Origin: Chiloscyllium plagiosum
Taxonomy: Eukaryota
Assembly: GCF_004010195.1 (NCBI RefSeq)
Contig: NC_057714.1
Span: 46,265,922 to 46,329,921, forward strand
Length of the DNA: 64,000 nt
Direction of reading: 5' to 3'
In this document: positions 149 through 64,000 of the stretch, in pieces
How positions within the stretch are numbered: the stretch's first letter is position 1
Layout of the letters: every line of letters begins with the position of its first letter
Program-made: the position numbers and the translations under genes
The notes under the pieces: generated by a model
What the model was told of the DNA's origin: nothing
What the model saw: the letters and a program-made list of their open reading frames with translations, nothing else
Database searches by the model: none

Positions 149-338
149 CTTTCCAGTAGCGGTTCCAGCCAACCTATATGGCATTCACAATGGCAGTCCA
201 AGAACGTCAAGACATCACCTGTCGCTATAGATGCGCCCAACAATCGTGCACGAACTAAACCTTCTCTCTTTCGTGCTCGTATCAACCGCACTTTGCGAAG
301 AGTAGCCACGTAGTCTTCTAAAGGCTTTTTCAGGTGTT
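149..338 (-). CDS. GALNT12: GALNT12 coding exon 3 (contains the Mn-binding DxH motif)
   Basis: Acceptor ttgctttcccag|AA. Encodes [64 protein letters not shown]. Donor AG|gtaggt; 190 nt. The gene continues beyond position 1. Confidence 0.95.
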
Positions 339-8803: not shown

Positions 8804-9538
8804 CAGAGGAATCGCGATTATCCAAATACCAATTATCCAAAAATTGGATTATCCAAAGGAGATCTCGCGGTCCTGATGGAAACATTACATAAAAGGCATG
8901 TTTCCAACAATGATCGCGTCTTTTGTTTACAGTGATTAAACAGGCATCGTCTCCAAATTACTGACCTCCCGCCCTCTCTCTCCCTCCACACTTTCCCTGG
9001 AATTCTATACAGGGGCATACCCTAAACCTCCCTTCCCCAAGTAGTCTCTCCAATATTGCTCTGTACAAGTGAAGGTGGAACCTGTCAAAACATTGCAGTA
9101 CAAAGTTGTGGGGCTGTGGCTGCTTGTGCGTGTGCTATTTGAAGACTTACCCCCACAAAGGTAGGAGCTGCAGCATTCTGTTGTTGGTGTCCAGTCCAGC
9201 TGCCCCGGAGAGGGGGCGGGTGTGTACGGGGTTGGGGGGCGGTGTTAGATGAGGTTTGGGGTGGGGGGAGGTGTTGCACTGGGTTGGGGGCGGAGNNNNN
9301 NNNNNNNNNNNNNNNNNNNNNNNNNNNNNNNTGTATGGTGTTAGAGGTGGTGGGGCAGTGTCTGACGGCGTTGGGGGTGGGGGATTTGGGGCAGGGCCTC
9401 ATGCGCTGTGTGCTGCTGCAGTCTCCTGAACGAGGAGCAGACTTTAAAAACACGGAGCCCTAGAGGAAAGGCATTTAATCGATTATCCAAACGAAAACAT
9501 GCCCGCCCATCACATTCGGAAAAATCGAGGTTCCCCTG
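8804..9538. mobile_element. Tc1/mariner (pogo/Tigger-like) non-autonomous MITE inserted in a LINE RT relic
   Basis: TA at 8802-8803 and 9539-9540. Imperfect 24-bp terminal inverted repeats: CAGAGGAATCGCGATTATCCAAAT versus reverse complement CAGGGGAACCTCGATTTTTCCGAAT. Subterminal ATTATCCAAA repeats; no transposase. Confidence 0.8.
9296..9331. other. Assembly gap (36 N)
   Basis: N run within the G-rich interior of the MITE. Confidence 1.
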
Positions 9539-14818: not shown

Positions 14819-14988
14819 CTCGGTCACTGTAATCATCCACAAGGATGAGCTCCTTTAACAGAATATCAGGTGAAGTATCAAGAACACTGTGGACCGTCCT
14901 CAGGAGTGTTGACCAGGCCTCATTATAAAACGCTATTACCACTGAAGTGGTAGGAAGGTTTCGATAATCGTACTTTTTCTCTCTACAC
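14819..14988 (-). CDS. GALNT12: GALNT12 coding exon 2 (GT-A catalytic domain)
   Basis: Acceptor tttacattatag|G completes the Leu codon from exon 1. Encodes [56 protein letters not shown]. Donor G|gtagat; 170 nt, phase 2 to phase 1. Confidence 0.95.
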
Positions 14989-29339: not shown

Positions 29340-31540
29340 TGATAAATACCGTATGATTCCACACTGTAAACAATCTAATAGCTATGGAGAAGAAGAGGAT
29401 ATTTAATTGGGGAAGAGGAAACTATGATGCGATTAGACACGAGTTAGGAAGCACGGACTGGGAGCAATTGTTCCATGGTAAAGGCACTATAGATATGTGG
29501 AGACTGTTTAAGGAACAGTTGTTATGAGTGATGAATAAATATGTTCCTCTGAGACAGGCAAGAAGGGGTAAGATAAAGGAACCTTGGATGACGAGAGCGG
29601 TGGAGCTTCTCATCAAAAGGAAGAAGGTAGCTTACATAAGGTGGACGAAGCTAGGTCAAGTTCAGCTCTAGAGGATTACAGGCAGGCGAGGAAGGAGCTC
29701 AAAAATGGTCTGAGGAGAGCCAGGAGGGGGCACGAGAAAGGCTTGGCAGAACGGATTAGGGAGAACACAAAGGCATTTTACACTTATGTGAGGAATAAGA
29801 GAATGGTCAAAGAAAGAGTAGGGCCGATCAGGGACAGCATAGGGAACTTGTGTGTGGAGTCTGAGGAGGTAGGGGAAGCCCTAAATGAGTTTTTTGCTTC
29901 TGTTTTTACGAAAGAAACGAACTTTGTAGTGAATGAAACCTTTGAAGAACAGGTGTGCATACTGGAATAGATAGAGATAGAGGAAGCTGATATGCTGAAA
30001 ATTTTGTCAAGCATTAAAATTGACAAGTCGTCAGGCCCGGACCAGATTCGTCCTCGGCTGCTTTGGGAAATGAGAAATGCAATTGCTTTGCCACTTGCGA
30101 AGATCTTTGCATCCTCGCTCTCCACTGGAGTCGTACCTGAGGACTGGAGAGAGACAAATGTAATTCCTCTCCAAGAAAGGAAATAGGGAAATCCCCGGCA
30201 ATTAGAGGCCAGTCAGTCTCACGTCTGTCGTCTGCAAGGTGTTAGAAAGGATTCTGAGGGATAGAATTTATGATAATCTGGAAGAGCATGGCTTGATTAA
30301 ATGCAGTCAAACACGGCTTTGTGAGGGGCTGGTCATGCTTCACAAACCTTATCGAGTTCTTTGAGGAGGTGACTAGAAATGTTGATGAGGGTCGAACTGT
30401 GGATGTGGTGTATATGGACTTCAGCAAGGCATTTGATAAGGTTCCCCATGGTAGGCTCATTCAGAAGGTCAGGAGGAATGGGATACAGGGGAACTTAGCT
30501 GTCTGGATACAGAATTGGCTGGCCAACAGAAGACAGCGAGTGGTAGTAGAAGGAAAATATTCTGCCTGGAAATCAGTGGTGAGTGGTGTTCCACGGGGCT
30601 CTGTCCTTGGGCCTCTACTGTTTGTAATTTTTATTAATGACTTGGATGAGGGGATTGAAGGATGGGTCAGCAAGTTTGAAGGTTGAAGGTGTCATTGACA
30701 GTATAGAGGACTGTTGTAGACTACAGCGAGACATTGACATGATGCAGAGATGGGCCGAGAGGTGGCAGATGGAGTTCAACCTGGATAAATGCAAGGTGAT
30801 GCATTTTGGAAGGTCAAATTTGAAAGCTGAGTACAGGATTAAGGATAGGATTCTTGGCAGTGTGGAGGTACAGAGGGATCTTGGTGTGCAGGTGCATAGA
30901 TCCCTTAAAATGGCCACCCAAGTGGCCAGGGTTGTTAAGAAAGCATAACAGTGTTTTGGCTTTCATTAACAGGGGGATTGAGTTTAAGAGTCGTGAAATT
31001 TTGTTGCAGCTCTATAAAACTTTGGTTAGACCGCACTTGGAATACTGCGTCGAGTTCTGGTCGCCCTATTATAGGATGCTTTGGAGAGGGTTCAGAGGAG
31101 GTTTACCAGGATGCTGCCTGGACTGGAGGGCTTATCTTATGAAGAGAGGTTGACTGAGCTCGGACTTTTTTCATTGGAGAAAAGGAGGAGGAGAGGGGAC
31201 CTAATTGAGGTATACAAGATAATGAGAGGCATAGATAGAGTCGATAGCCGGAGACTATTTCCCAAAGCAGAAATGGCTAACATGAGGGGTCATGGTTTTA
31301 AGCTGGTTGGAGGAAAGTATAGAGGGGATGTCAGAGGCGGGTTCTTTACACAGAGAGTTGAGAGAGCATGGAATGCGTTGCCAGCAGCAGTTGTGGAAAC
31401 AAGATCAAGGGACTTTTAAGAGACTGCTGGACATGCATATAGTCACAGAAATTTGATGGTGCATACATGAGGATCAATGGTTGGCACAACATCGTGGACT
31501 GAAGGGCCTGTTCTGTGCTGTACTGTTCTATGTTCTAATA
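29340..31540 (+). mobile_element. Young 5'-truncated CR1 LINE (ORF2 RT), frameshifted
   Basis: ORF pieces [69 protein letters not shown]. Tail TGTTCTATGTTCTA. Confidence 0.93.
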
Positions 31541-46049: not shown

Positions 46050-46830
46050 TCCGTCTCACTTACAGCGGGTTCCACCTCTCGGGCAGCCGGCGCCGCAGGG
46101 AGATCCTGTCGCTGACATAGATGTTGATCTGATGTTTGCTCACACTCTCTTCCTCCTTCCGCTTCTCCTCGCCCTCCAGGTTCAGGTGAACCGCTCTGCC
46201 CAGTTCCCCCAGCGCACCCTCATCCAGCCGCGGCTTCTCATACACGGTTCTCCGGAGGCGGTCGTACTCGGAGTGGCCGGCGGCGGCGGCGGCGGCGGCC
46301 GCCACCGAGCCCGTGTCAGCCGCGGGCTCCCAGCGCTCAGCCCGCGGCTGCCGCTTGCCCTGCTGCCCGCTCCGGCTCAGCACCACGAAGCCCAGGGCGA
46401 TCATCCCGCAGCACAGCAGCAGTAACTGCTTACAGCACCGCCGCCTCCGTGCCAGCAACATCGCCCCCCACCCTCCAAGGACAGGAGAAGGTGGGGGTGC
46501 CCCTCCCGCGGCCCAGGGACGGACACACACCGGGCTACCGGCCCCTCCCGCTCCGGACCGTGCGGCGCTCACACACCGAAGCTGCCGCCCCCGCCGTCCC
46601 ACACAAACTTTCCACAACTCGTCCAGGAAGTGGCTCGCGGTCGGTCGCACGGTAGGCGGGGCCTAGAGCGGAAAGCCGCCGAATGTTGAGGCGTTTCCCT
46701 GGAGACCCAGCCGGGGCGGGCGCTAGAGCGTGACACGCTGTCAGCAAGTGCGCATGCGCAAGTTCTGCAGGTGACATAAAGAGGGTGTGGCTCACCAAGA
46801 TGACCCTGTTCCCCGAGGAGGGCGACACAA
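46050..46830 (-). promoter_or_regulatory. CpG island and promoter of GALNT12
   Basis: Sharp rise in GC and CpG content against the AT-rich background. Perfect NRF1-type palindrome TGCGCATGCGCA at 46749-46760, GC boxes near 46654 and 46713, ETS-like CAGGAAGT near 46624. Confidence 0.8.
46064..46461 (-). CDS. GALNT12: Polypeptide N-acetylgalactosaminyltransferase 12, coding exon 1 (cytoplasmic tail, TM anchor, stem, start of catalytic domain)
   Basis: ATG at 46461 (context gcgATG). Reads MLLARRRRCCKQLLLLCCGMIALGFVVL (type II TM anchor) ... HQINIYVSDRISLRRRLPERWNP-L, matching recalled human GALNT12 HQINIYLSDRISLHRRLPERWNPL. Ends CT|gtaagt (phase-2 donor at 46063); 398 nt. Confidence 0.93.
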
Positions 46831-46976
46831 GTGACAGCGAGGGGTTAGACTCGTACAGCGGGGAAACACACCCTTCAGCCCAACTAATCCATGCCGACTA
46901 TTTTTTTTTCAAATTAAACTCATGCCATTTGGCCCATATACCTTTCCTATTTACATAGCGATCCAAATGTATTTTA

Positions 46977-47315
46977 TTTTTTCCCCTTGTTTAGTGGCAC
47001 AGGAAAAAGACACTTTTGCGCAAATCCTTTCCCATATTATATTTTTCAGCAGAAAAACAATCATGTGGTTCGTGAAACACTGACAGGCAAAGACTGACAA
47101 AAGCAATGGTTACACCAAATAAAAAGTGGAGGAGGGGACTAAATCAAAAGAGTTGGATAGAGAAATAGCACTTGATCCAAAACCCCAGTGCACACATCTC
47201 CCTAAAGACATCGAGAGCACTGGCAGAGGCAGCATGCTCGCTCTCCCGTCAGACGCGAACTCAAACATAACCGCTGCAGGGGAACAGGCAGTCTCCACGA
47301 CTCGCCACCTGGACA
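46977..47315 (-). mobile_element. Unclassified 339-bp SINE-like insertion inside a CR1 3' fragment (about 46845-47830, minus strand)
   Basis: 14-bp TSD CCAAATrTATTTTA at 46963-46976 and 47316-47329. CpG-containing head and A-rich 3' end on the minus strand. Confidence 0.65.
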
Positions 47316-49446
47316 CCAAATATATTTTAAATGTTATAATTGTATCAGCCTCTATCACTTCCTCTGGCAGCTTGTTCTGTATATGCACCATCTCTGTGTG
47401 AAAAAGTTGCCACTGAGGTCCATTTTAAATCTTTCCCCTCTCACCTTAAACCTGTGCCCTCTAATTTGGACTCCCTCATCCCAGAGAAAAGATCTTGGTT
47501 ATTTACCTTATCTATGCCTCTCATGACTTTATAAACCTCTATAAGGTTTATAACCCCTCAGCCTCCTAAGCTCCTAGGAACAATGTCCTAGCCTATCCAC
47601 CTTCTCCTTATAATCAAACCCTGCAATCTCAGTAACATCCTTTTAAATCTTCTTTGCATCTTTTCCAGTTTTGTAACATCCTTTCTATTGTGGGGTGATT
47701 AGAATTGTATGCAGTCCTCCAAAATTGGCCTCATCAATGAAGTCAAGCAAGCCAAATGCCGCTTTCACCACCCTGACGACCTGTGACACTACTTTCAAGG
47801 AAATATGTACCTACACCACTAGATTTAAGTTCAGACATCCAAGAGAGGGATGTAGAGGTGGCAGAGAACTGGGGTGGAGATGGCAGAGACATATGCCAGA
47901 GATCCCAGATGTCATGGAGTTGGACAGAGACAGTGTCATTCAGCAGAGGTTTGGAGACTTCAAGTTTATGTAAGGCACAATGCGAGGGAACAAGGCAAGA
48001 ATGGTTTGATCTGGCTGTGTCCAGAAATAACAAATGAGAGTGTCTGAGATAGTTTATGGAAGTCTCAGTGATAATGTGCACTTGCATTTGGTAGCACAAC
48101 CAAGGCCAAATCGGGTAACAGATTGCAAATAGACCTATTTAGCCTTTTTGCTAGGATCTTAGTCCTAGGTCAGTTCATATTGTGCCCATCCCAATTGTAT
48201 AGTTTACTCCTATTGCCATGGTCCCACAAGATTCCCACATGTTGACTTCCCTACTCTTATCTCTTTGCCAATTTGTACGTGTAGCAGATAATAATCCAGA
48301 CATTACAATTCTTGAGGTCCTGTTGTTTTAATTTTGTTCCTAATTCCTGATATTCCGCAAACAGGACTTTTGCCTATGTTTTTGGTGGCGACATAGGACT
48401 GCACAACTGAACCCTCTCCCCCTCACCCAATCTCCAGTTTCTTATTTGTTGAGTAGAAGTGTGATTAGCTTGGTAATTCTGGAACTTCTGCTTCGTATCA
48501 TACTGATTCATCAGCTATAGGAGGGTGGTAGGTGGTAATCAACTGAGAGTTCCATGTTTGACTTAATGCAATAAGACTCCATCGAATACAGATAACCACT
48601 CCTCTTGACCATATGCCACTGTTGCATCATTGATAATAAGCTTCTTTAAATTCTCAAAAGCTGTTAAAACAAGCCAAAGAAACAGCATTCTATACACTTG
48701 AACAAACCAAATAATTCTCTATATAGTTTTCTGTAAATTACTTTAAATGATTTGAAGTCTGATTAATCTGTGTCATGCAGCACATGAGTAAAGTGCTTAT
48801 TGTACATGATAAACCAATTTTCAGCTATTGTAATTGACTCCACAACAATAGGACACCATAAAACTAGAGGAATATCTTTTCATTAAAAAAAAACTTTGTA
48901 TATATTTGTAAATATGTTTCAAAAAGATCCAGATTGTGGTGTAGTCAGATGTTCACTCTGATATGCATTTGAGGGGAACTCAAGATAAAACATGCTCAAA
49001 ATTTGCTTACACTGTTAATTATATCCCAAACAGAAACCCTACTCAGCAAGTTCCCATCCTAAAAAGATCATTTTGCGAATCAGATTAGCATTTACAACAC
49101 TAACACCATTAAAATACCTGCTTTTTATTAGCTTGTTTTTCAAATTCACAAAGTGGATGCAAATTCATGGAACTACCATGGTGGGATTTGAACTCTGATC
49201 TCCAGATTATTTAGGTCTCTGGTTTACTTGTTTGTGAATATATCCATGACATTACTGCCATTACTGTCATCAAAATGCCAAGGTCAATCCTGTCCACTCC
49301 CAACGTCCACCTGCCTTCCATGAATGAATTACTGAACAGAAACAAAGTAACAATTTTTCCCTTTTGTTTTCTTCTAGTCAACCTGTTCAGAGATGTTATT
49401 ACACACCTCTGGAGCAGGTGGGACTCAGAGAAGAAAAGGAATGCCA

Positions 49447-49518
49447 TACGTTGGCAAGGAATCGAACCCAGCACCCCCCACCTGACAGGCAAGAATTCTA
49501 CCACTGAACCACTGCAAA
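49447..49518 (-). pseudogene. tRNA-Gly(GCC)-derived pseudogene
   Basis: Reverse complement GTGGTTCAGTGGTAGAATTCTTGCCTGTCAGGTGGGGGGTGCTGGGTTCGATTCCTTGCCAACGTA versus recalled vertebrate tRNA-Gly GTGGTTCAGTGGTAGAATTCTCGCCTGCCACGCGGGAGGCCCGGGTTCGATTCCCGGCCAATGCA. The 5' acceptor strand is lost and the anticodon now reads GTC. Confidence 0.75.
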
Positions 49519-49741
49519 TAAAATCCCTTTATCATGTCAGAGATCTTGAAGGTCAGCTGTTTCAGTCCTGCAACCAATTAAAGTATCCGCACAAAACATA
49601 TCAGAACTGGGACAATCTTGCTGAAGGCAGTAAGTCATTGCAGACAAGACTAGAGGGGTGGGATCCTTACTGTCTAGTTGAGGTGATTGTATGCAAGGAT
49701 CATTTTAACACATTGATAAACAGAAAATGAATAATTTGGCA

Positions 49742-50970
49742 TCATGAGTCATAGAGATATACAGCATGGAAACAAGACCTTTCGGTCCAACCTGTCCATG
49801 CCGACCAGATATCCCAACCCAATCCATTCCCACCTGCCGGCCCATATCCCTCCAAACCCTTCCAATTCATATACCCATCCAAACGCTTCTTAAATGTTGC
49901 AATTGTACCAGCCTCCACCACATCCTCTGGTAGCTCATTCCATACACGTACCACCCTCTGCGTGAAATAGTTGCCCCTTAGCAATGTCCTGTACAGCCGC
50001 AACATGACCTCCCAACTCCTGTACTCAATACTCTGACCAATAAAGGAAAGCATACCAAACGCCTTCTTCACTATCCTATCAACATGCGACTCCACTGTCA
50101 AGGAGCTATGAACCTACACTCCAAGGTCTCTTTGTTCAGCAGCACTCCCTAGGACCTTACCATTAAATGTATAAGTCCAGCTAAGATTTGCTTTCCCAAA
50201 ATGCAGCACTTCGCATTAATCTGAATTAAACTCCATCTGCCACTCCTTAGCCCATTGGCCCATCTCGTCCAGATCCTGTTGTAATCTGAGGTAACCCACT
50301 TCGCTGTTCACTACACCTCCAATTTTGGTGTCATACGCAAATTTACTAACTGTACCTCTTATGCTCGCATCCAAATCATTTATGTAAATGACAAAAAGTT
50401 GAGGACCCAGCACCGATCCTTGTGGCACTCCACTGGTCACAGGCCTCCAGTCTGAAAAACAACACTCCACCACCACCCTTTGAGCCAGTTCTGTATCCAA
50501 ATGGCTAGTTCTCCCTGTATTACATGAGATCTAACCTTGCTAAACAGTCTCCCATGGGGAACCTTGTCGAACGCCTTACTGACGTCCATATAGATCACAT
50601 CTACTGCTCTGCCCTCATCAATCATCTTTGTTACTTCTTCAAAAAACTCAATCAAGTTTGTGAGACACGATTTCCCACGCACAAAGCCATGTTGACTATC
50701 CCTAATCAGTCCTTGCCTTTCCAAATATAAGTACATTCCTGTCCCTCAGGATTCCCTCCAACAACTTGCCCACCAACAAGGTCAAGCTCACCGGTCTATA
50801 GTTCACTGGCTTGTCTTTACCGCCCTTCTTAAACAGTGGCACCACGTTTGCCAACCTCCAGTCTTCCGGCACCTCACCTGTGACTATCGATTATACAAAT
50901 ATGTCAGCAAGAGGCCCAGCAATCACTTCTCTAGCTTCCCACAGAGTTCTCGGGTAACCTGATCAGGTCC
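49742..50970 (-). mobile_element. Young 5'-truncated CR1 LINE with internal deletions
   Basis: ORFs [64 protein letters not shown]. Confidence 0.92.
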
Positions 50971-51134
50971 TTTATCATTAAATATCGTCTTTTCAGTTAA
51001 TCAGCAGGTAAGAATGAGCGATCAAATATTTTCTAGCTTCTCACCTGAATCATGGAGTGTTATAATCCAAAAATATCACAGTTCTCATCAATATTAAAAA
51101 TGTGAAAATAGAACATGACCACATTAGCAAAATT

Positions 51135-52060
51135 GTATAATGACATAGGAACTGGAATAAGCCATTCAGCCCCTCAAGCCTATTCCACCATTCAATGTGT
51201 TCATGGCCGATTTGTGTCCTAATTCCATATAACCTACGTTTGGCCCATAGATCTGTAAAATAAGTGCTTTTTCCGGAACTGAAAGGTATTTTTTTTTTAG
51301 AATCATATGGTACAGAAGAGGCATTAAGTCTGCACTGACAAGAATTACTCTAAATCTACACTCGTCCCGTTTTCCAGCACGAGGCAAAGCCTTGAATTTT
51401 TTTTTTAATTTCAAGTATTCATCCAAATATTCTTCAAACTTATTGAGTTTTCCTGCCTTTGCTACCCTCAGTTCACTCCACATTCACAACACCCTCTGGG
51501 TGAAAATGTTTTTCCTCAAATCTCCGCGAAATTTCTTGCCTCTTGTTTTAAAATTTTGCCCGTTATTAACCTTGCAGTTAAGAGATGTAGTTGTTTTCTA
51601 CATGTCCATGTCCCTAAAGATCTTACACTTCAATGAGGTCCTGCCTCAGCCTTTTCTGCTCTAAAGAAATCAGCTTGGGCCTTTCCTGTTTCTCTCCTTA
51701 GCTAAAATGCTCCATCTCGGGCAACATCCTGATGAATCTTCCCTGCTTTCTCTTCAGTACAATAATTTGCTTCCTGTAGTGCAGTGACCAGAACTTCACA
51801 CACTACTCCAGCTGTGGCCTAACCAAAGTCCTGTACATGTCTCACCTCCTGCTGTTCTAATCTATGCCACAGTGGTAACAGATTTGCCTTCTTAGTCACC
51901 CTATTAACCTGTTCCGTCACCTTCATGGATCTGTGGAAATGCAACACAAGGTCCCTCTGAGCTTCCTCGTGTTCTGCCATACGATTCCTTCGTTACTTAG
52001 TCTAAAGTGCATCACCCCACACTTATCAGGGTTAAATTCCATTTTTAAAATAAATTTTCA
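51135..52060 (-). mobile_element. Old CR1 3' fragments
   Basis: CR1 3' ends and C-terminal RT relics on the minus strand. Confidence 0.65.
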
Positions 52061-52389
52061 CTCTCTCTGTGGAGAATCCACCTTGGCTCACTTTGGCACT
52101 TGCTCCAGTCGTCATTCTGAAGTTGTGTAACTACCCAGCAGTGAATTCTTCAAAGAACCGTTGTTGCATTATGGGAGATGTTTGCTAACACTCCTGGAAA
52201 ATGATTTAGGGCATGCTACTATGTCTAAAGACATGATGTACATGCAATTACAACATTCAAAAGGCATCTGGATGGGTACATGAATAGGAAAGGTTTAAAG
52301 GGATATGGGCCAAGTGCTGGGATATCTGGTCAGCATGGATGAGTTGGACCAAAGAAGCTGTTTCCATGCCTACTTATCTATGACTCTAT

Positions 52390-55300
52390 CCCTTAATATG
52401 TTTGCTGAACAAAAATATATTGCAGATTTAAAATTAACATCTGTTTGAGCATTCACTGCCATTAATGGAAGAGAGTTCCAAACATCTACCAGCCTTTATG
52501 TGTAGACATACTTCCTAACATCTCTGATAAATGGTCTGGCCCTAATTCTCAACCAGTGGAAATAGTGTAGATAAAGATGAACTTCTTTTCCTGTTAATAT
52601 CTTGAAGATGTTGATCAGATTAGCCCTTAACTTTCTGAACTCTAGAAAAAAACAGGTCAAATTTATATAATCTCTCTTCATAAATTAACTAGGTCTAGGT
52701 ATCATTCTTGTAAACCTACGCTGTACTCCCTCCAAAGCCAGTACATCCTTCCTAAGGTGAAGTGGCCAGATCTGCTCACAGTACTCCAAGTAGGGTCTAA
52801 CCAGGGTTTTGTATAACTTCAGCATAACTTCTGTATCCTTGTACTCCAGTCCTCTAGATATAAAGGCCAGCATCCCATGAGCTTTCTTGATTATTTTCTG
52901 CATCTGTTTGTGATATTTTAAAGATCTAGTCACCTGAACCCACAATTCTCTTTGGACATCCACTGTATTTAACTTCATATCATTTAGAAAGTACTCCAAT
53001 CTATCCTTTCTTGATCCAAAATTAATAACTTCACTTGAACATAGAATATAGAACAATACAGCACAGAACAGGCCCTTCGGCCCACAATGTTGTGCCGAAC
53101 ATTTGTCCTAGCTTAAGCACCCATCCATGTACCTATCCAATTGCTGCTTAAAGGTCACCAATGATTCTGGCTCTGCCACTCCCACAGGCAGCGCATTCCA
53201 TGCCCCCACCACTCTCTGGGTAAAGAACCCACCCCTGACATCTCCCCTATACCTTCCACCCGTCACCTTAAATTTATGTCGCCTTGTAACACNNNNNNNN
53301 NNNNNNNNNNNNNNNNNNNNNNNNNNNNNNNNNNNNNNNNNNNNNNNNNNNNNNNNNNNNNNNNNNNNNNNNNNNNNNNNNNNNNNNNNNNNNNNNNNNN
53401 NNNNNNNNNNNNNNNNNNNNNNNNNNNNNNNNNNNNNNNNNNNNNNNNNNNNNNNNNNNNNNNNNNNNNNNNNNNNNNNNNNNNNNNNNNNNNNNNNNNN
53501 NNNNNNNNNNNNNNNNNNNNNNNNNNNNNNNNNNNNNNNNNNNNNNNNNNNNNNNNNNNNNNNNNNNNNNNNNNNNNNNNNNNNNNNNNNNNNNNNNNNN
53601 NNNNNNNNNNNNNNNNNNNNNNNNNNNNNNNNNNNNNNNNNNNNNNNNNNNNNNNNNNNNNNNNNNNNNNNNNNNNNNNNNNNNNNNNNNNNNNNNNNNN
53701 NNNNNNNNNNNNNNNNNNNNNNNNNNNNNNNNNNNNNNNNNNNNNNNNNNNNNNNNNNNNNNNNNNNNNNNNNNNNNNNNNNNNNNNNNNNNNNNNNNNN
53801 NNNNNNNNNNNNNNNNNNNNNNNNNNNNNNNNNNNNNNNNNNNNNNNNNNNNNNNNNNNNNNNNNNNNNNNNNNNNNNNNNNNNNNNNNNNNNNNNNNNN
53901 NNNNNNNNNNNNNNNNNNNNNNNNNNNNNNNNNNNNNNNNNNNNNNNNNNNNNNNNNNNNNNNNNNNNNNNNNNNNNNNNNNNNNNNNNNNNNNNNNNNN
54001 NNNNNNNNNNNNNNNNNNNNNNNNNNNNNNNNGTGTTCCTCCAATGCTCTGTCTGAAGTTTCCTCAACCTTATGTAAGCCTCCTTCTTCCTCTTTACAAG
54101 ACATTCAACCTCCCTCATCAACCAAGGTTCCCTCACATGACCATCTCTTTCCTGCCTGACAGGTACATACATATCAAGGACACGTCGTATCTGTTCCTTG
54201 AAAAAGTTCCACATTTCAACGCCATCCTTCCCTGACAGCCTGTGCTCCCAACTTATGCTCCTCAGATCCTGTCTTGCAGCATCTTATTTACCCTTCCCCC
54301 AATTGTAAAACCTGCCCTGTTGCACGCACCTATCTCTCTCCATAACCAAGGTGAAAGTCACAGAATTGTGGTCACCATCACCAAAATGTTCACCCACTAA
54401 CAAGCCCATCACTTGTCCCGGTTCGTTACCAAGTACCAAATCCAATATGGCCTCCCCTCTGGTCGGACAATCTACATACTGAGTTAGAAAAGCTTCCTGG
54501 ACACACTGCACAAACACCACCCCGTCCAATCTACTTGATCTAAAGAGCTTCCAATCCATATTTGGGAAGTTGAAATCGCCCATGACAACTACCCTGTGGC
54601 TTCTGCACCTTTGCAAAATCTGTTTCCCCACATCTCTGCTGCTATTGGGGGGCCTATAGTAAACACCCAATTTCCTATTTCCTAAGGAGTAAACACTCCT
54701 TTCCTATTTCTGACTTCAGCTCATACTACCTCCAAAGGCAGATCCCCTCGAACTGCCTTTCTGCAGCCGTTATACCATTTCTAATTAGCAACGCCACCCC
54801 CCCCCCTCCTTTTTTACCATCCTCCCTAATCTTACTGAAACATCTGTAACCAGGAACCTCCAACAACCATTCCTGTCCCTCTTCTATCCACGTTTCCATG
54901 ATGGCCACAACATCGCAGTCCCAGGTACCGATCCACGCCTTAAGTTCACCCACCTTATTTCTGATACTCCTTATGTTGAAGTATACACACTTGAACCCAT
55001 CTCTGTGTCCGCAAGTATTCCCTGTCAGTGCTACCTTCTTCGACATCCTGACAAACAGCTAGCCTACTTGCTGGACTACAAGTCTGGATCCCATCCCCCT
55101 GCCAAATTAGTTTAAACCCACCCGAAGAGTGCTAGCAAACCTACCTCCCAGGATATTGGTGCCCTTCTGTTTCAGGTGCAACCCGTCCTGCTTGTACAGA
55201 CCCCACCTTCCCCAGAATGCAGTCTATTTGTCCAAATACCTGAAGCCCTCCCTCCTACACCATCCTTGCAGCCACCTGCTTACAATAAACTCCACCTGCC

Positions 55301-58300
55301 ACAGTTTTTCAGCATTCACTTAGCATAAAATTATAAAGGGATATTGATCGACTATCTCCATTGTCTATAGTGTACCTAGCTTTGTGTTATCAACAACTTT
55401 GTACTTTCTATGCCATTATCCAATTCATTAATAATGAGTGTGAATAATTGAGGCAGAACACAGATCCTTTTGGGACATTATGATCACACCCTGCCAATTT
55501 GAGTACCTATCCATTATCTGTATGTTCTGCCACCTGCCATTCAACCAATTTCCCAGCCATGTCAGCAGTTTGCCCTCATTTGCATGGACGTCTAGCTTAG
55601 TTAACAGTCTTCGATGTGAGACTTTCTCATTTGGAAGTCCATGTAAACATTCATAAGACACTCCCCTGTCCACTTACTTAGTCACTTCCTCAAAGAATTT
55701 CAGGCATGACCTACCTGACATGTTGGTTCTCCCTGATTAACTGAAAATTTTCAAGGTGTTCAGTTATCCCATTTTTGATTATAGACTCCGACAATTTCCC
55801 ACAGATGTTAGGCTAACTGGTCTGTAATTGCCTGGTTTTCCTCTTTCACCCTTAAAAAAAAACACTAAGTGACATGTACAATTTTACAGTCAAGAGGGAC
55901 GATTCCTGTATCTGAGGAATTTTGGAAGGTTATAGTTAAGAAGTCTACAAATTTGCTCCTTTACATCATTTAACACCCTCTGTTGTGAATTGTCGAGTTC
56001 TGGAAATTTGCCACTTTTTATTTCGATTAATTTTCATATCACTGGTGTTTTACTTATGTTAATTTTATTCAGTCCCTGTTCCACTGTTAATATCCTTAGA
56101 ACTTCTGGCAAGCTATTCTGCTTTTCTACTGTAAGTACTTAAGCAAAGTAATTATTCAACATATCTATTATATCCTCCGAGTCATTGACAATATCCCCAC
56201 TTTCGATCTCTAGTGGGTCAATATTGCTCCTGAACACCTGCTTTCTCTTTATGCAACTATAAAAAGTTTCTTCTTATTGATTTTGATGTCTCCAGCAATT
56301 TTCCTTTCATAAACTCTTATAAGCTGCTTTGTGCCCATTTGCTGGTCCTGGTCCCCTTTCCATTCAGCAGGATCTGTTTTTTGCAAGCCTTTTCATTTGG
56401 TTTTATGCTATCACTTCTCTCACTTTGTTTTTTTTTCTGGAAGGTGGTGCCTTTTTCTCTCAGTGGTGTAAACTGGTCTTGTGTTGTGACAAATGTTTCT
56501 TGAAACATCCTCCACTGCTCTTCAGTTGATTTGTCCATAAGCAAATTTTCCCAATTTATTGTGAACAGTCATCTCATTAAAGTTGACCTTACGCAAATCT
56601 AAATCTCTAATAACTGATCCATACTTTTCACTTTCAAACGAGACATTGAACTCGGTCATGTTATGATCACTATTTGATAAATGTTCATACACAATTAGGT
56701 GACTAATTGAATCTGGCTCATTACAAAATCCAATATTGCTTGTCCCTTGTTACATCCAGGATTTACTGCTGCAGGAAACGATCCCGGACACACTCCAGAA
56801 ATTTACTATCTTTCAGAAAGGGTGCTTTTCTGCCTCTCCCAATCATTTAAAGTTAAAATCCCTCATTAATACCCCTTTGGCTTTGCTATACACTTGTTTA
56901 ATTTCTGTATTTATACAATCTAGCACTTCAGAGCTGCTATTGGGGGTTCTGTATACAACACTGATTACAGGTTTAGATCTTTAATGTTCCTCAGTTCCAC
57001 CCATACAGTCTTCACTGAATGTTTTGCCCTCATTATGTCCTTCCTCACCATTGAAGTAATTTTGTTTCTAATCAGTAAGGCTAGTCAAACCACTTTGCCA
57101 ATTTCCTGGTTCATCCTGTAAAATCTATGAACTGACTTATTTAGTTCCCATTCCCAAGTGTTTTGCAGCTGTGTCTCAGTTATGGTTATTATATCATAGC
57201 CTCCGATTTAAATTTATGCCTGCACCTTACTCAATTTACTCCTTACATTCCACGCATTCATACATTCAGGCCAAACTCTGTAACCCGGCCCTCAGCACTG
57301 ATGCTTTATTCATAGATTTACTATTTCTTTCAGTTGAATCAATACACTTTTTATTGTTTTGTCATTCCCTACTGTGTTTGAAGTAGGATTCCTGACTGCT
57401 TTACCCTGTCATGTTACTTAAATTTGAAACTACACTGATTTCGCCAAAGCCCTCCTCACCATTTACTAATTTAAAGTCCCTGTGACCACCCAATTTAGCT
57501 TTTCCACTTGGACATTGGTCCCAGATTGGTTCAGGTCGAGCCCATCCCAATGGTACAGTTTCTTCCTGTTCTAATATCGACACCACAGCCCCACGAGTTG
57601 GAACCCTTCTTTTAGCCATGCAGTCACTTACCTAATTTTCTTACCTCTACGCCTATTTGCACATGGTTCAGGTAATATTCCAGAGATTACAACCTTTGAA
57701 GTCCTATTTCTTAATTTTGTTCTTAATTTTTGATATTCCTAAAACAGGACCTCTTTCCTAGATTTGTGGGTCCAATTTTGTTGATCCTCCCCTCAACAAT
57801 ATCCTTTCATGCCAGTTAGAGATGTCCCTTACCTTGACACCACTCAGGCAATAGATCATTCTGGACTCTCTAATCATGCTTACAAAAGGATACTTTCTGT
57901 ATCCATCATCATGGAATCTTCTACCACAGTCAGTTTTTCTCCTTCTTCCCCCACAAGAATGGCCTCCTTTATCACAGTGTGATGGTCAGTTTGCCAATCC
58001 TCCCTCACATCCTTTTCCTCAAACACACAGGTAGCAAATTTGACTGCTGGTGAGGGGCAGGAGAATGTGACAAGTGAGGCAGGTAGCCGGATGCTGAATT
58101 TAGCATTGCAGGAACCTCAGTTCTTGAACATGTCCAACATGAGGTACTTTCTATTATTCCTTCATTGGATGAGAAATCTCTGATTGGCCAGTATTTATTG
58201 CCCTTTCCAGATGGTCTTGAGATGGTGGTGATGAACTGCCTCTTGAATTGCAGCAGTCCAATATACTTTAGGTAAACCCACAATGGCCTTCAGTTCACCA

Positions 58301-59450
58301 CCACCTTCTCTAGGGCAACTAGGGACAGGAAATAAATGCTAGCTGTTCTAGCCACACCAACATCCCATGAGTGAATTAAAAAAAAGTACTCATATCTGTT
58401 GCTCAAGGTCAAGATCTGAGGCTCCTCCAATGCTAAATTCAGAATCTCTTGATCTGCCTCACTTACAGTCACATCCTCCTGTCCCTGATCTTCGGCCAAA
58501 TTTGAAGTACTTACCTACACGGTATGGCTGGTCCTGAAATACAGCATCCAGGTAATTATCCCCCTCCCTGAAGTGCCACAGACTTCCAGCTCATCACTTC
58601 TGATCTCATATCCTTTAGCAACCAACACTTGTTACAGATGTGGTCACTCTGAACCACAATGAGGTCCACCAGCTCACACATCATGCAGGTACAACACATC
58701 ACCTGGCCCTGCATATCTTAAGTTAATTTTTAGTTTTTATTGTATATTTACATTTCCTACCAGTCTTTAATTTTTTAATCTAAAATATTTCTCAAACTTA
58801 TTTTAAATTCCTTTCGGATTAAAGGTAAGTATTGAAATTTGCAGCTACAGTGGCTTACAGCTTTTCCTGTAATGTCACTTTTTCTCCCTGCACTGTTTCT
58901 GATCCCTAAGTGTCCTCCCTCATTGGTTCCGCTCTCTCTCTCTTTCCGGGATTGCACAGCTAAGTGAGTAGGCCTGGAGCCTCAACCTCAATTTTTTACT
59001 TCCTGCTCAGTCCCTGCATCCACCCCAGCTGGCTCCTCTTTCCTCTGATGTCCCAAATTCACTAAAGACCCGATTTGGATATTAAAGAGAAAAAGTACTC
59101 AGCAATGATTAAAAAAGATGGACTGACCAACACCGCCCCCCCCCCCCCCCACGCCTCCTTTCACCGAACTCCATGTTTCATCAAACTCCAGTTACACTCT
59201 GCTGCAATGAAGTAGCATTCCAGTACAGGCAAGGCAGCCCTGAAGGAACCCTCTTTTCATAGCCCCTAACTCTGAAACTTCTGGAACTGGATAAAACCAG
59301 TTGTCTAATTAACTAGCTTCAGTGCTGTACAGTACCTGTAAATTCTTGTTTTAAAGCTGCACCCAATCAATAGTACAATCTTTAGTTAATTGCTAAATTG
59401 AAGGACAGACTAGACTTTAGATTGAAATTAGCCCTTAAATTAAATAATTC
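52390..59450 (-). mobile_element. Near full-length degenerate CR1 with a younger CR1 nested at about 53040-55280 (spanning the N gap)
   Basis: Host has LYKTLVRPYLEYC at 52685-53056, RT and endonuclease relics at 55300-57250, and ORF1 relics to about 58710. Nested copy has endonuclease GVYYRPPNS..VVMGDFNFP..GEHFGDGDHNSV and a TTCTATATTCTATG tail at about 53040. Confidence 0.85.
53293..54032. other. Assembly gap (740 N)
   Basis: N run inside a young CR1 copy. Confidence 1.
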
Positions 59451-59599
59451 AACACGATATAAATGTATCAATAAAAACCTATTTCATTCTTTAAAACAGG
59501 AAGAGAAAATGCTCAAAATACTCAGCAGGTATGCCAACATCTGTGCATGAAAACAGATTTGCAGCATCCATGGCATTTTGCTTTGGTATTCAGCACAAA

Positions 59600-60288
59600 A
59601 ACAAATTTTAAAAAAATAATAATTTATTTATATATAATTCTAAAAAGACAGTAGTTTATTTCATGCATTTCTTATATCCACACAAGTTTTCCATCCCTTT
59701 GTTCCTGCATTATAAGCGCTTTAACAATCATTTATCCCTTATACAGTTTCTATTTTAAAATAGCATTTGTTTTAAACTGCATTTCACAAGCAAAAATTTT
59801 ACATCTAAAATTTCTCCTCACATTCTGAAACCATGAATTGTTTCATTTTGTCTCGATTGAAGCCTGCAATCTTTTTTCCCTTTTAAAAATAACAGAAAAG
59901 TAAACTATGCAAGATTGTACAAATCACAAAGCAACAGGGACCCATTCAAGTCCAAAAAGCAGTTTGATTAGTTTTAGTTATCTGATACAGTGATCAAGGA
60001 AGGGCAAAGAAACCAAATATCCAGACAGAGAGCCATGAATAAATCATCATGAACAAAGACCTCATAATGTCTGGCATTCAAAAATGGACAAAAATCTACA
60101 TTCACTCAAGCTATCCCCTCCACCTCACCCACCCCTTGATGCTTTCCATCAATGTTTTAGGCACCATGGTGATACAAATTGCACTTTGCTTCAATGCATT
60201 AAATTTTAACTTCACTTAGCATTGATTTCTCTTTGACAATTACTTAAGTCAAAGCATTACTGTTTACTCTGGAAAATTGTGAATAGCC
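59600..60288 (-). terminator. Putative 3' UTR and polyadenylation signals of the GALNT4-like gene
   Basis: Non-repetitive AT-rich stretch after the stop codon. AATAAA on the minus strand at 59655-59660 and 59623-59628, followed by a U-rich tract. Confidence 0.6.
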
Positions 60289-60417
60289 CTATTCAAAATG
60301 CCAGATTTGATTATTGTCCTGTGAATTGCAAATTCTCATTTCAACATCCATCCGTCCTTCAGCTGTATAATAGGAAGTAATGCACTTGTTCGATTTTGGA
60401 TGGAAAATCATTCCGTT
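60289..60417 (-). CDS. Terminal coding exon of a second GalNAc-transferase, GALNT4-like (last repeat of the ricin-type lectin domain)
   Basis: Acceptor tgtttatttacag| (phase 0), then NGMIFHPKSNKCITSYYTAEGRMDVEMRICNSQDNNQIWHFE*. Has the ricin-B C..C and QxW pattern and resembles the recalled human GALNT4 C-terminus DGTIFHPHSGLCLSAYRTPEGRPDVQMRTCDALDKNQIWSFEK. Confidence 0.85.
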   Translation of the reverse strand, partial: NGMIFHPKSNKCITSYYTAEGRMDVEMRICNSQDNNQIWHFE

Positions 60418-62819
60418 CTGTAAATAAACAATGCAGTTATTACACATAATATACATACAAGTTTTACCATACCAACATTGTTCAGCTTTACCATGGGACA
60501 TTAAGGCTGGAACTAAACACTTTTCCAGTTCTACCAACATCAATATGAAATTCTGCCAGTTAAGGAGAAGCACAAAGTAAAACTCCATTAGTGTACGTCA
60601 AAAATCTGAAGACAAGTAAGGTGTTAATATGTGATATGTATTAATATATCACGAAACATTGTCATTTTCTATGCAGGCCAGGCCACAGGTAGAATATGGA
60701 TCTTAGAACAAATTCAGAAGAAAATGATGAGTTGATTGAGAGATGTCCTAATGGAGTTATTGAAAGTGATGCAAGTATTTAATAGGAGGAGAAACCTGTT
60801 CCTCTGGTGGGGCGATCCAAAACAGGAGGATTCAAGCTTAAAATGAGAGCAACGGTATTCAGAAGGGAAATCAGAGAAACACTTTTTCCCCCACGCAAAG
60901 TAGTTAAATTAAGACTCATTACGTAAGGAGTCATTGTTTGATCAACTGAAATTTCCAAAACCACATTTGGGTAATTGAAGCCCCACTTTATAATTACTCT
61001 ATGATGCTGATATTTTTCTGTAATTTCCCTACAGGCTTGTTCCTCTACAGCTTTTCCACTAGTTGTTGTTCTATAGACTAAACTGAACAAAGTGTTCAGT
61101 GAGAAAGGGTGAACCATCTTCCCTCTTTTCAGCCTCTTCAGTTGGTATAACAAAGTTTTTTGAGAGAGCAAATTTATTACCGCCAAACCCCAAGAAAAAT
61201 AAAAAGAAGAACAAGCATACACCTGCATGCAGTCACTCAGGCACGTACACACTCAAGTACAAATTTGAAAAGGAATAGGGATGAATACAAATGAATGTAT
61301 AAAGAATATGTTTGGTTCAGAATCCTTTGAATGTCCTCAAGAATCAAGATTTCAATCTGAGACTTAAGGTTGGTTAGTTGGTTTTTTTAGATGCAGTCAG
61401 TATTAGTGAATTTTACTTTTTTTTTAAAGAGGTCTTAGTTTTCTGATCTTCCTTTCAATCAGTGCTGTCAAACAGGCACTTTTCTTATTGGAGGAAGAGA
61501 GATCAGTTGTCCATTCCGAATCTCATTTCTCTTGATCTGTCAAAAAAGCTCGTCAAAATATTAGCTGTTTGTACATTCCACGCCTATGGAGGTAGGCAAT
61601 AACAGATGTTTCAGGTCCAATATGCAAACATTCCCATATAGTGCAAATCAAATAGGAGATGTTGACCTTCTCATGCTCCCCATGGAGGGTGACTGACCAA
61701 TTTAATTGTCCTCAGAGAAAATGTTAATTTCAGTTTAGCCTATATTTGGTCTAATCTGTGTGAGTTTCATAAAACTCAGCCAACATTTATGGGTCAGGCA
61801 ATCGATGAAGCCTTTTAACTTCATCTTTCAGTTTTTTTTGTAAAAACTGTTTCCATCCATGCAAGTCCTGGTATTAAATGAGCAGACAGAATTCCGAAAC
61901 CAATATTCTGTAATTTCTATCATCATAAATAATTCAACAGCCTTGTGAGTTGAATGCCTTACTCAGGTTCTTGTATATGTAGCTTAACTGCACTAAGGTT
62001 CTTGCTGGAGCTTAGGAAGCTGAAATAGCAATGGCTTGAGAAGATATGATTAATGTATTCAAAATAGGAGAGGGATTAGACTCTGATTATAATGGATAAG
62101 CGATTCAAACTAAGTAGAACAGGAAGGTACCTCAAAACAATGAAAAACAGCAAGCAATTCTTCTGATGAACTGACCAGTACTCCTTTCTCAACCAATAAT
62201 AAAAAGCCATTGTTTCCAATACTATTTAAATATCTGCATACATAAGTCATTGCACTTCCACCAAGGTGAGGAGAGATATGTGGATAATGTACAAAATAAA
62301 TGTAAGTTTGTCCTTCCTGTTTCACCTCTACAGCCCCATATTTTTGCACAAGAATTTTGAAAGCTTACATTATGTTTGAATGCCATCCAAAAGTAGGACA
62401 AAGATTTTTTCAAAACATAGCCAAACATTCTTGGCCAACTTTCACAAATAGCCTTTCAGATTTGGTGGAATGCCTTAACAGAGAGATGCAGTTCTTCATT
62501 CATCTTCATCTTCATCTTGAAGCAAAGCATCTCAAATTTTAGGGAAAATGAATGAAACATAGACACAAAATTTTCATTGATCAAATAATCTGGCATTAGT
62601 TAAGCCATTTTTTCTGACTCACAAAGCACAATAAACTGATTCACTGAATCGCTTTGCAAGACAAACTAATTTGTGCCACATCTGTATTGTATTTTGAAGT
62701 GTGTTCATGTACGAAGTTGCCTTGCAACTCAGCTTCCAGGAATATAACATTATTCAAAGACCTCCTGGATGGAACTATATCTTGAAATTCATAAACTGAC
62801 TGAAAGAAAAATACTTCAT

Positions 62820-64000
62820 CCCATGATTTGTCTGTTTGTCTGGTGATTCCATCTGCAGTCAGCCTCCTCTTCTGATTCCCAAGATTCATGGATGCCAGTC
62901 ATAAGTCATATCAATCCATTTCACATGATATCATAAAATGGCTGAAGGTACTGGATCAATCAAAGCTCTACACCCTGCCAACATCCTGACTGGTATATTG
63001 AAAACAATTTCTTCTTCACAGCTAACCATGCACATTGCCAAAGTGTTCCCGCACAATTACAACACCAGTAACTATATGATATTATGAGAAATAGCCCAAA
63101 TAGGTCCTGACCGCAAAAAAAGCAGGATAAACCAATTATAGCAATTACCATTCCATTACTCTACTCTCAATCAACAGCAAGGTGAGGAAGATATCATTAC
63201 CAGTGTTACCATGTGGCACTTCCAACTGTGACCATGTGGAAAATTACACAGGTACTTCCCGTAATCAAAATGCAGGACAAGTCAAACCCGGTCAATTACT
63301 ACCCATCTGAAGTGATGGAAGGTGTCCTAAACAGTGCTATCAAGCAGGATATTCCGAGCAATAACTTTCTAACTGACACTCAGTTTGGGTACCGCCAGGA
63401 CCACTCAGCTCCTGACCTCATTACAACCTTGGTTCAATTCCAGAGATCATAGAATCCCTACTGTGTAGAAACAAGCCATTCGGCCCAACACGTCCACACC
63501 AACCTTGTGTTGAGAGTCATTGCCTTTGATATCAAGGCTACGTTTAACCAAGTGTAGCACCAAGGATTTCTAGCAAAGCTAGAATCAATGCATATCAGTG
63601 TGCAAACTCTCACTGGTTGGAGCCATTACTGGCTCAAAGGAAGGTGGTTGTCATTGTTGGAGGTCAGTCATTTCAGCTACAGGACATCTCTGCAGAAGCA
63701 CCTCAGGGTAGTGTCCTAGGCCCAACCATCTTCAGCTGCTTCATCAATGACCATCCCTCCGTCATAAGATCAGAAGTGGGGATGTTAGGTGATGACTGCA
63801 CAATGTTCAGCACATTCATGACTCCTCATATACTGAAACAGTCAATGTCCAAATGCAAGTGCTGGATAATAACCAGGTTTGGTCTGACAAGTGAGAGTAA
63901 CATTTGTGCTACACAAGTGACAGGTAATGACTGACTATCTCCAACAACAGACAATCTAACCATTGCCCCTTTGCAATCAATAGTATCACCAATCACTCAA
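62820..64000 (+). mobile_element. RT relic of the second LINE family in the last intron of the GALNT4-like gene
   Basis: ORFs QFGYRQDHSAPDLIT and PQGSVLGPTIFSCFIND..GDDCT. Confidence 0.8.

Follow-up and report, generated by a model that had tools for sequence, protein, structure and literature searches.

The coding region of mammalian GALNT4 is a single exon, and a short lectin-type exon lying beside GALNT12 in the shark Chiloscyllium plagiosum raises the question of whether other vertebrates have a GALNT4 gene with introns and, if so, how the intronless gene relates to it and to GALNT12. The stretch of DNA analysed (64,000 nucleotides, hereafter the window) contains parts of both genes, each on the minus strand. 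GALNT12 is represented by coding exon 1 (46064..46461; 133 codons with a phase-2 donor), exon 2 (14819..14988; 170 nt, phase 2 to phase 1) and exon 3 (149..338; 190 nt, phase 1 to phase 2, including the DxH motif), the latter two matching the Pfam GT2 domain. The AG/GT sites of these exons were taken directly from the window DNA, and each exon is 100% identical to C. plagiosum GALNT12 (P0178), over 253/253 residues in all. The best PDB match of exon 1 is GalNAc-T12 (6pxu, E 6.3e-19; GalNAc-T4, E 1.4e-10), and the sole GC-rich 2 kb bin of the window (GC 0.53) contains this exon. Exon 1 includes a stem-region alanine run, the length of which differs between close relatives; the exon comprises 133 residues in C. 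plagiosum (and the window), whereas C. punctatum has 131 and Hemiscyllium 125. GALNT12 introns 1 and 2 (within 339-46063) are about 31 kb and 14.5 kb long, and are rich in reverse-transcriptase fragments, e.g. at 29572-31416 on the plus strand. From the ORF listing and N runs, the intergenic region between GALNT4 and GALNT12 (46462..59622) likewise holds LINE-like reverse-transcriptase fragments, together with an assembly gap of 740 N (53293-54032) in LINE-like sequence; a second gap, of 36 N, is at 9296-9331. We take the reverse-transcriptase fragments of the window to be LINE/CR1. Rfam gave no match in the 64-kb window.

The exon at issue (60289..60417, minus strand) encodes residues 539-580 of GALNT4 followed by a stop codon, i.e. 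the end of the ricin-type lectin domain. It is preceded by a 3′ splice acceptor (60418..60445, minus strand), a T-rich tract ending in an AG at 60419-60418, such that the exon begins at 60417 and extends over 42 codons to a TAG at 60291-60289, giving 129 nt in total. All 42 residues are identical to the C terminus of C. plagiosum GALNT4 (P0009, XP_043545895), and the same 42 residues end the intact, 580-residue GALNT4 proteins of Hemiscyllium and both Chiloscyllium species. The identity with the full GALNT4 protein ends at the acceptor position; the preceding GALNT4 residues are encoded in none of the three frames upstream of the acceptor, where the in-frame sequence is not GALNT-like. The lack of upstream GALNT sequence in any frame implies a spliced terminal exon, not a processed copy, which would have no coding introns. 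The penultimate exon (residues 488-538) was not found in the 64-kb window by permissive tblastn (best E 1.4), so the last intron, of phase 0, exceeds 3.5 kb, extending on the minus strand over 60418..64000 and running off the window; one of about 10 GALNT4 exons falls within it. A first-pass annotation of this DNA had described a 129-nt, minus-strand, phase-0 exon with an acceptor and with non-GALNT sequence ahead of it, a description that both the sequence and the tblastn search bear out, and the exon is confirmed as the terminal exon of an ordinary, intact, multi-exon GALNT4 with a spliced phase-0 start. The gene is not, as had been supposed, an unknown 'GALNT4-like' one, since the NCBI annotation of C. 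plagiosum already names it GALNT4 (XP_043545895-900; GALNT12 is XP_043545893).

The probable 3′ UTR (59623..60288, minus strand) was placed by motif scan, a weak basis, with candidate AATAAA signals at 59660 and 59628, i.e. 629 and 661 nt past the GALNT4 stop. These signals had been cited earlier as support for the gene; they are present, but a 3-kb span of this AT-rich DNA contains six AATAAA, and, with the motif so frequent here, poly(A) signals alone prove little.

The exon peptide is nearer to GALNT4 than to GALNT12, as first proposed. Among PDB sequences it matches GalNAc-T4 (5nqa, E 8.3e-12), with GalNAc-T12 unmatched at E<=10; the Pfam ricin lectin match of the peptide (E 2.6e-4) is under the curated cut-off. 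There are seven matches to it in the protein database, all of about 580 residues, and the six that are named all come from cartilaginous fishes, five of them being named GALNT4. Over the 42 positions, the exon shares 19-42 identities with 51 named GALNT4 proteins versus 9-15 with 25 GALNT12 proteins. The full shark GALNT4 scores 1030 bits against human T4 (residues 7-580) and 690 bits against T12.

GALNT4 is placed with GALNT12 in subfamily IIa (PMC5288242), and GALNT12 is the closest human paralogue of GALNT4 (PMC8472655). It might thus be proposed that GALNT12 gave rise to mammalian GALNT4 by retroposition and, independently, to the shark gene by duplication, the more so as the shark gene adjoins GALNT12 and has introns in common with it. 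The tree of vertebrate GALNT4 and GALNT12 proteins argues otherwise. In the IQ-TREE analysis (53 of the 78 named proteins, 25 rows being left out by species name, and with no outgroup from another GALNT subfamily), all 35 GALNT4 proteins, from shark to mammal, lie in largely species order on one side of a long branch with 100/100 support, and 17 GALNT12 proteins plus one lamprey protein lie on the other. The shark tip is the database protein P0009, the last 42 residues of which are those of the window exon, and FastTree with all 78 named proteins gives the same GALNT4/GALNT12 split (topology only). Constraining mammalian T4 and mammalian T12 to one clade is 485 log-likelihood units worse (p-AU 0.0001), such that derivation of GALNT4 from GALNT12 is refuted under the model used; the exon itself has 22-24/42 identities with mammalian T4 compared with 13/42 with shark T12. 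We consider the likelihood of a GALNT12 retrocopy negligible, and the PDB matches, tree and exon identities likewise rule out the 60.3 kb exon as part of a GALNT12 orthologue. At the level of sequence, the shark gene is the orthologue of GALNT4, not of GALNT12.

Five lamprey proteins (P0140 and P0260-P0263) have the NCBI name 'GALNT15', which is probably a misnaming, as judged from the 73% identity of the protein with shark GALNT12 and its position on the GALNT12 side of the tree; no lamprey GALNT4 was present among the matches listed.

P0009 has the Pfam domains PF00535 (GT2) and PF00652 (ricin lectin), i.e. the same type II GT2 plus ricin lectin layout as GalNAc-T4 (PDB 5nqa, 6h0b). By alignment to 5nqa it retains the DxH of the catalytic domain and, in the lectin domain, the Asp that corresponds to human D459, residue 459 of T4 being one of the lectin alpha-subdomain (PMC3173194). 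Shark GALNT4 is predicted to act in the Golgi as a polypeptide GalNAc-transferase, initiating mucin-type O-glycosylation.

The relationship with GALNT12 (GalNAc-T12, PDB 6pxu), which is 57% identical to GALNT4 in this shark and forms a separate clade, extends to gene structure. Three GALNT12 junctions were taken from the DNA of the window and five from isoforms that skip exons, and all were mapped onto GALNT4 numbering. A Scyliorhinus torazame GALNT12 isoform skips 52 residues and ends the skip exactly at the residue homologous to the window acceptor, which confirms that the last intron is shared by GALNT4 and GALNT12, in line with the earlier proposal; the phase of this intron in GALNT12 can be inferred from the cleanness of the skip. 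For GALNT4, 26 odd-length models were picked by hand, of which 17 depart internally (the nine that do not were left uncounted). Among the departing models, 9 of the 11 from non-amniotes have their breakpoint at a GALNT12-type junction or one residue away from it (four shark/ray, four sturgeon/paddlefish/grenadier and one frog, Mantella), versus none of the six from amniotes. Five different junctions are hit across sharks/rays, the window and fishes (1/2, 2/3, 4/5 or 6/7, 8/9 and 9/10), and the junction of the window is itself the breakpoint in two sturgeon/paddlefish GALNT4 models. Every testable intron position, including the last, is thus common to the two genes, and the window exon together with the 9/11 non-amniote models identifies a multi-exon GALNT4 orthologue in amniote outgroups. 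The single Mantella model breaks at 8/9, and on this one gene model GALNT4 introns probably persist at least into frogs.

Within the window, the GALNT4 stop lies 13,827 nt from the GALNT12 ATG (46461), in agreement with the distance of about 13.8 kb first given and, from the exon identities described above, with the neighbour being GALNT12. Beyond the window, intron positions were read from protein models, and linkage from longest-contig sizes, accession order and fused protein models. Both genes report the same longest-contig size in all 16 cartilaginous and all six ray-finned species in which both were seen. Accessions or locus tags of GALNT4 and GALNT12 are at most three apart in 10 of 15 species with both seen, e.g. 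XP_072431599/600 in C. punctatum, KAK1173095/096 in Acipenser and Q7C36_014279/280 in a catfish; the remaining five have non-consecutive accessions and the same longest-contig size. Three draft models fuse GALNT4 and then GALNT12 in one protein (P0148 and P0213 from sturgeons, P0141 from a grenadier), an order that agrees with that in the window. The two genes are therefore a tandem pair, being adjacent, on the same strand and with shared intron positions in the window, and conserved in linkage, by this indirect measure, beyond it.

These observations bear on whether the exon could be a stray fragment or pseudogene, or its adjacency to GALNT12 a scaffolding error between 46.5 and 60.3 kb, a worry raised at the outset. 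Such an explanation could draw on the N gap in repeat DNA between the genes and on the window being without any upstream GALNT4 exon. The peptide, however, is the end of intact 580-residue proteins in three bamboo/epaulette sharks, and linkage in 22/22 fish species with data, plus the three fused models, shows the pairing to be ancient and no product of misassembly at the 740-N gap; independent assemblies so contradict the explanation that it is scarcely credible.

Several further observations on gene order were made. The P0213 model (Acipenser ruthenus) continues from GALNT4 and GALNT12 into a SPATA46-like domain, reflecting the local sturgeon gene order, and GALNT4 is present twice in sturgeons and paddlefish, each copy on its own contig, the two contigs being of similar size. 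Several unnamed proteins of 990-1490 residues (e.g. P0270, P0271, P0273 and P0274) contain at least two GALNT-like stretches at 41-44% identity, and probably represent other GALNT genes in tandem that were fused in the gene models. No fused amphibian model was found, Xenopus GALNT4 giving no long two-domain match above 56% identity against 50%-identity representatives. In Nanorana, the only amphibian in which both genes were seen, each is on a small scaffold of its own (398 and 231 kb). A location of Xenopus GALNT4 and GALNT12 on one chromosome was not counted as evidence, being based on chromosome lengths alone. In both turtles with data the genes are unlinked, on different chromosome-sized contigs, the longest contigs being 360,060,997 vs 291,303,948 in Chrysemys and 370,335,144 vs at most 303,241,278 in Gopherus evgoodei.

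A gene that has lost all its introns and lies nested, on the same strand, within an unrelated gene bears the standard mark of retroposition. In agreement with the POC1B location in the first-pass annotation, Galnt4 is described as a same-strand retrogene in Poc1b that disturbs Poc1b splicing in human and mouse cells (PMC10901741), and GALNT4 has been placed with POC1B on chromosome 12 (PMC6862657), including as a GWAS locus for NT-proBNP (PMC6072381). Gene models point to the same location, with POC1B-like WD40 sequence flanking GALNT4 on both sides in a desman model, and a bat model named POC1B running on into GALNT4. The six amniote models without a junction break and the two turtles with unlinked genes are likewise consistent with an intronless copy at a new locus. 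The coding region of the shark gene, by contrast, is interrupted by introns, and the gene is situated upstream of GALNT12. An alternative is that amniote GALNT4 lost its introns in place, by recombination with its own cDNA, and was later moved as DNA into POC1B, a retrocopy and its parent never having coexisted. On the tree alone, with its one GALNT4 lineage, this looks no different from a retroposition soon followed by disappearance of the parent; two rare events would, however, be required, and the intronless, nested, same-strand arrangement is what retroposition leaves behind, so we think in-place loss very improbable.

The available evidence instead favours a history in which GALNT4 was retroposed near the amniote stem from a multi-exon gene that was subsequently lost, human GALNT4 thus being an orphan retrogene, and we consider this history highly probable. 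GALNT4 and GALNT12 would have arisen as tandem duplicates at the DNA level before cartilaginous and bony fishes diverged, an origin suggested by their linkage and shared introns and consistent with the tandem arrangement originally proposed. The pair appears to have been kept head-to-tail, with GALNT4 first, in cartilaginous and ray-finned fishes, and the GALNT4 introns to have been retained at least to frogs. A spliced GALNT4 mRNA would then have been reverse-transcribed and inserted elsewhere, in mammals apparently into a POC1B intron on the same strand; introns that seem kept in a frog, and turtles in which the genes are already unlinked, point to the amniote stem for this move. The copy would have taken over and the parent beside GALNT12 been lost, making GALNT12 the sister of the parent of human GALNT4, not the parent itself. 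The suggestion that the shark gene is the multi-exon parent of GALNT4 is therefore right as to its exons and wrong if taken literally, since it is an orthologue of the parent locus; that the mammalian gene is a retrocopy is likewise supported, with the qualification that the event was probably not specific to mammals. A poly(A) remnant or target-site duplication is unlikely to have survived at the age of the amniote retrocopy.

The squamates may complicate the amniote part of this history. The name 'GALNT4-like' is attached to several of their proteins, no GALNT12 was retrieved from them, and one model from Anolis carolinensis (P0266, UniRef H9GBI4) combines GALNT4 residues 1 to about 476 with an inositol-monophosphatase-family tail that is BPNT2-named, such that squamate GALNT4 may, on this model, lie in or beside BPNT2/IMPAD1, not POC1B. 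It might be argued from the protein names and the Anolis model that, beside a genuine retrocopy, the parent gene lives on in certain amniotes, with squamates the likeliest, the replacement being lineage-specific and not a single stem-amniote swap. Against this, squamate GALNT4 is nested within sauropsid GALNT4 (98/96, IQ-TREE), and a mammal, turtle and bird GALNT4 clade without squamates is rejected (p-AU 0.017), as hence is reciprocal retention in squamates. Moreover, the breakpoints of the Anolis and Python models lie off the GALNT12-type junctions, and squamate GALNT4 N-termini are strongly G/A/R/P-rich, as in many other amniotes. Survival of the parent thus seems improbable, if slightly less so than in-place intron loss.

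Because the Anolis neighbour is a BPNT2-named tail and not POC1B, the retroposition history of amniotes may nevertheless have more than one step. GALNT4 might have been retroposed more than once, or have hopped again, into a POC1B intron in mammals and at BPNT2/IMPAD1, a Golgi-pathway gene, in squamates, with the parent lost each time. We regard this elaboration as doubtful, with perhaps a modest chance of proving right. If true, it would be a case of repeated retrogene replacement of one amniote glycosyltransferase, with a housekeeping promoter borrowed each time, and one hidden because GALNT12 poses as the parent.

Parts of this picture have precedents. That the shark gene is annotated as GALNT4 is already known, and retrogene replacement is a described class of event. 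Orphan retrogenes, i.e. intronless copies at a new locus the multi-exon parents of which are gone, have been catalogued (Ciomborowska et al., PMC3548309), and amniote GALNT4 would be of this kind. The same work describes a wave of retrogene swaps in the common ancestor that birds and mammals share, the parents disappearing soon afterwards; its main text does not mention GALNT. Further parallels have been described for amphioxus SYCP1 (PMC5803294) and the teleost hatching enzyme (PMC6385490). Searches of the supplements of PMC4641402, PMC10794172 (one file apart) and PMC5655803 gave no matches, and no account of a multi-exon tandem GALNT4 or of parent loss was found in the searchable literature, Bennett et al. 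2012 and the supplements of PMC4772013 and PMC8302217 being beyond reach. Bennett et al. 2012 compared intron positions, fish included, according to PMC3960557, and it is quite possible that fish GALNT4 introns have been noticed before, e.g. there.

No new enzyme or mechanism is involved. The history favoured here, in which a GALNT4 retrocopy arose near the amniote stem and its parent disappeared, would correct what one might naturally assume, namely that human GALNT4, being intronless, was copied from GALNT12: the split between GALNT4 and GALNT12 predates the jawed-vertebrate radiation, and what changed later would be only the packaging and address of the gene. It would also make GALNT4 one more orphan retrogene, unlike the others in that GALNT12, a close paralogue in tandem with the parent, has survived and may be taken for it; human-versus-chicken screens would miss such cases because that paralogue is still there. 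The result would be a testable contrast: in fish and frogs GALNT4 would be spliced and have a promoter of its own, and in amniotes it would be tied to a host gene.
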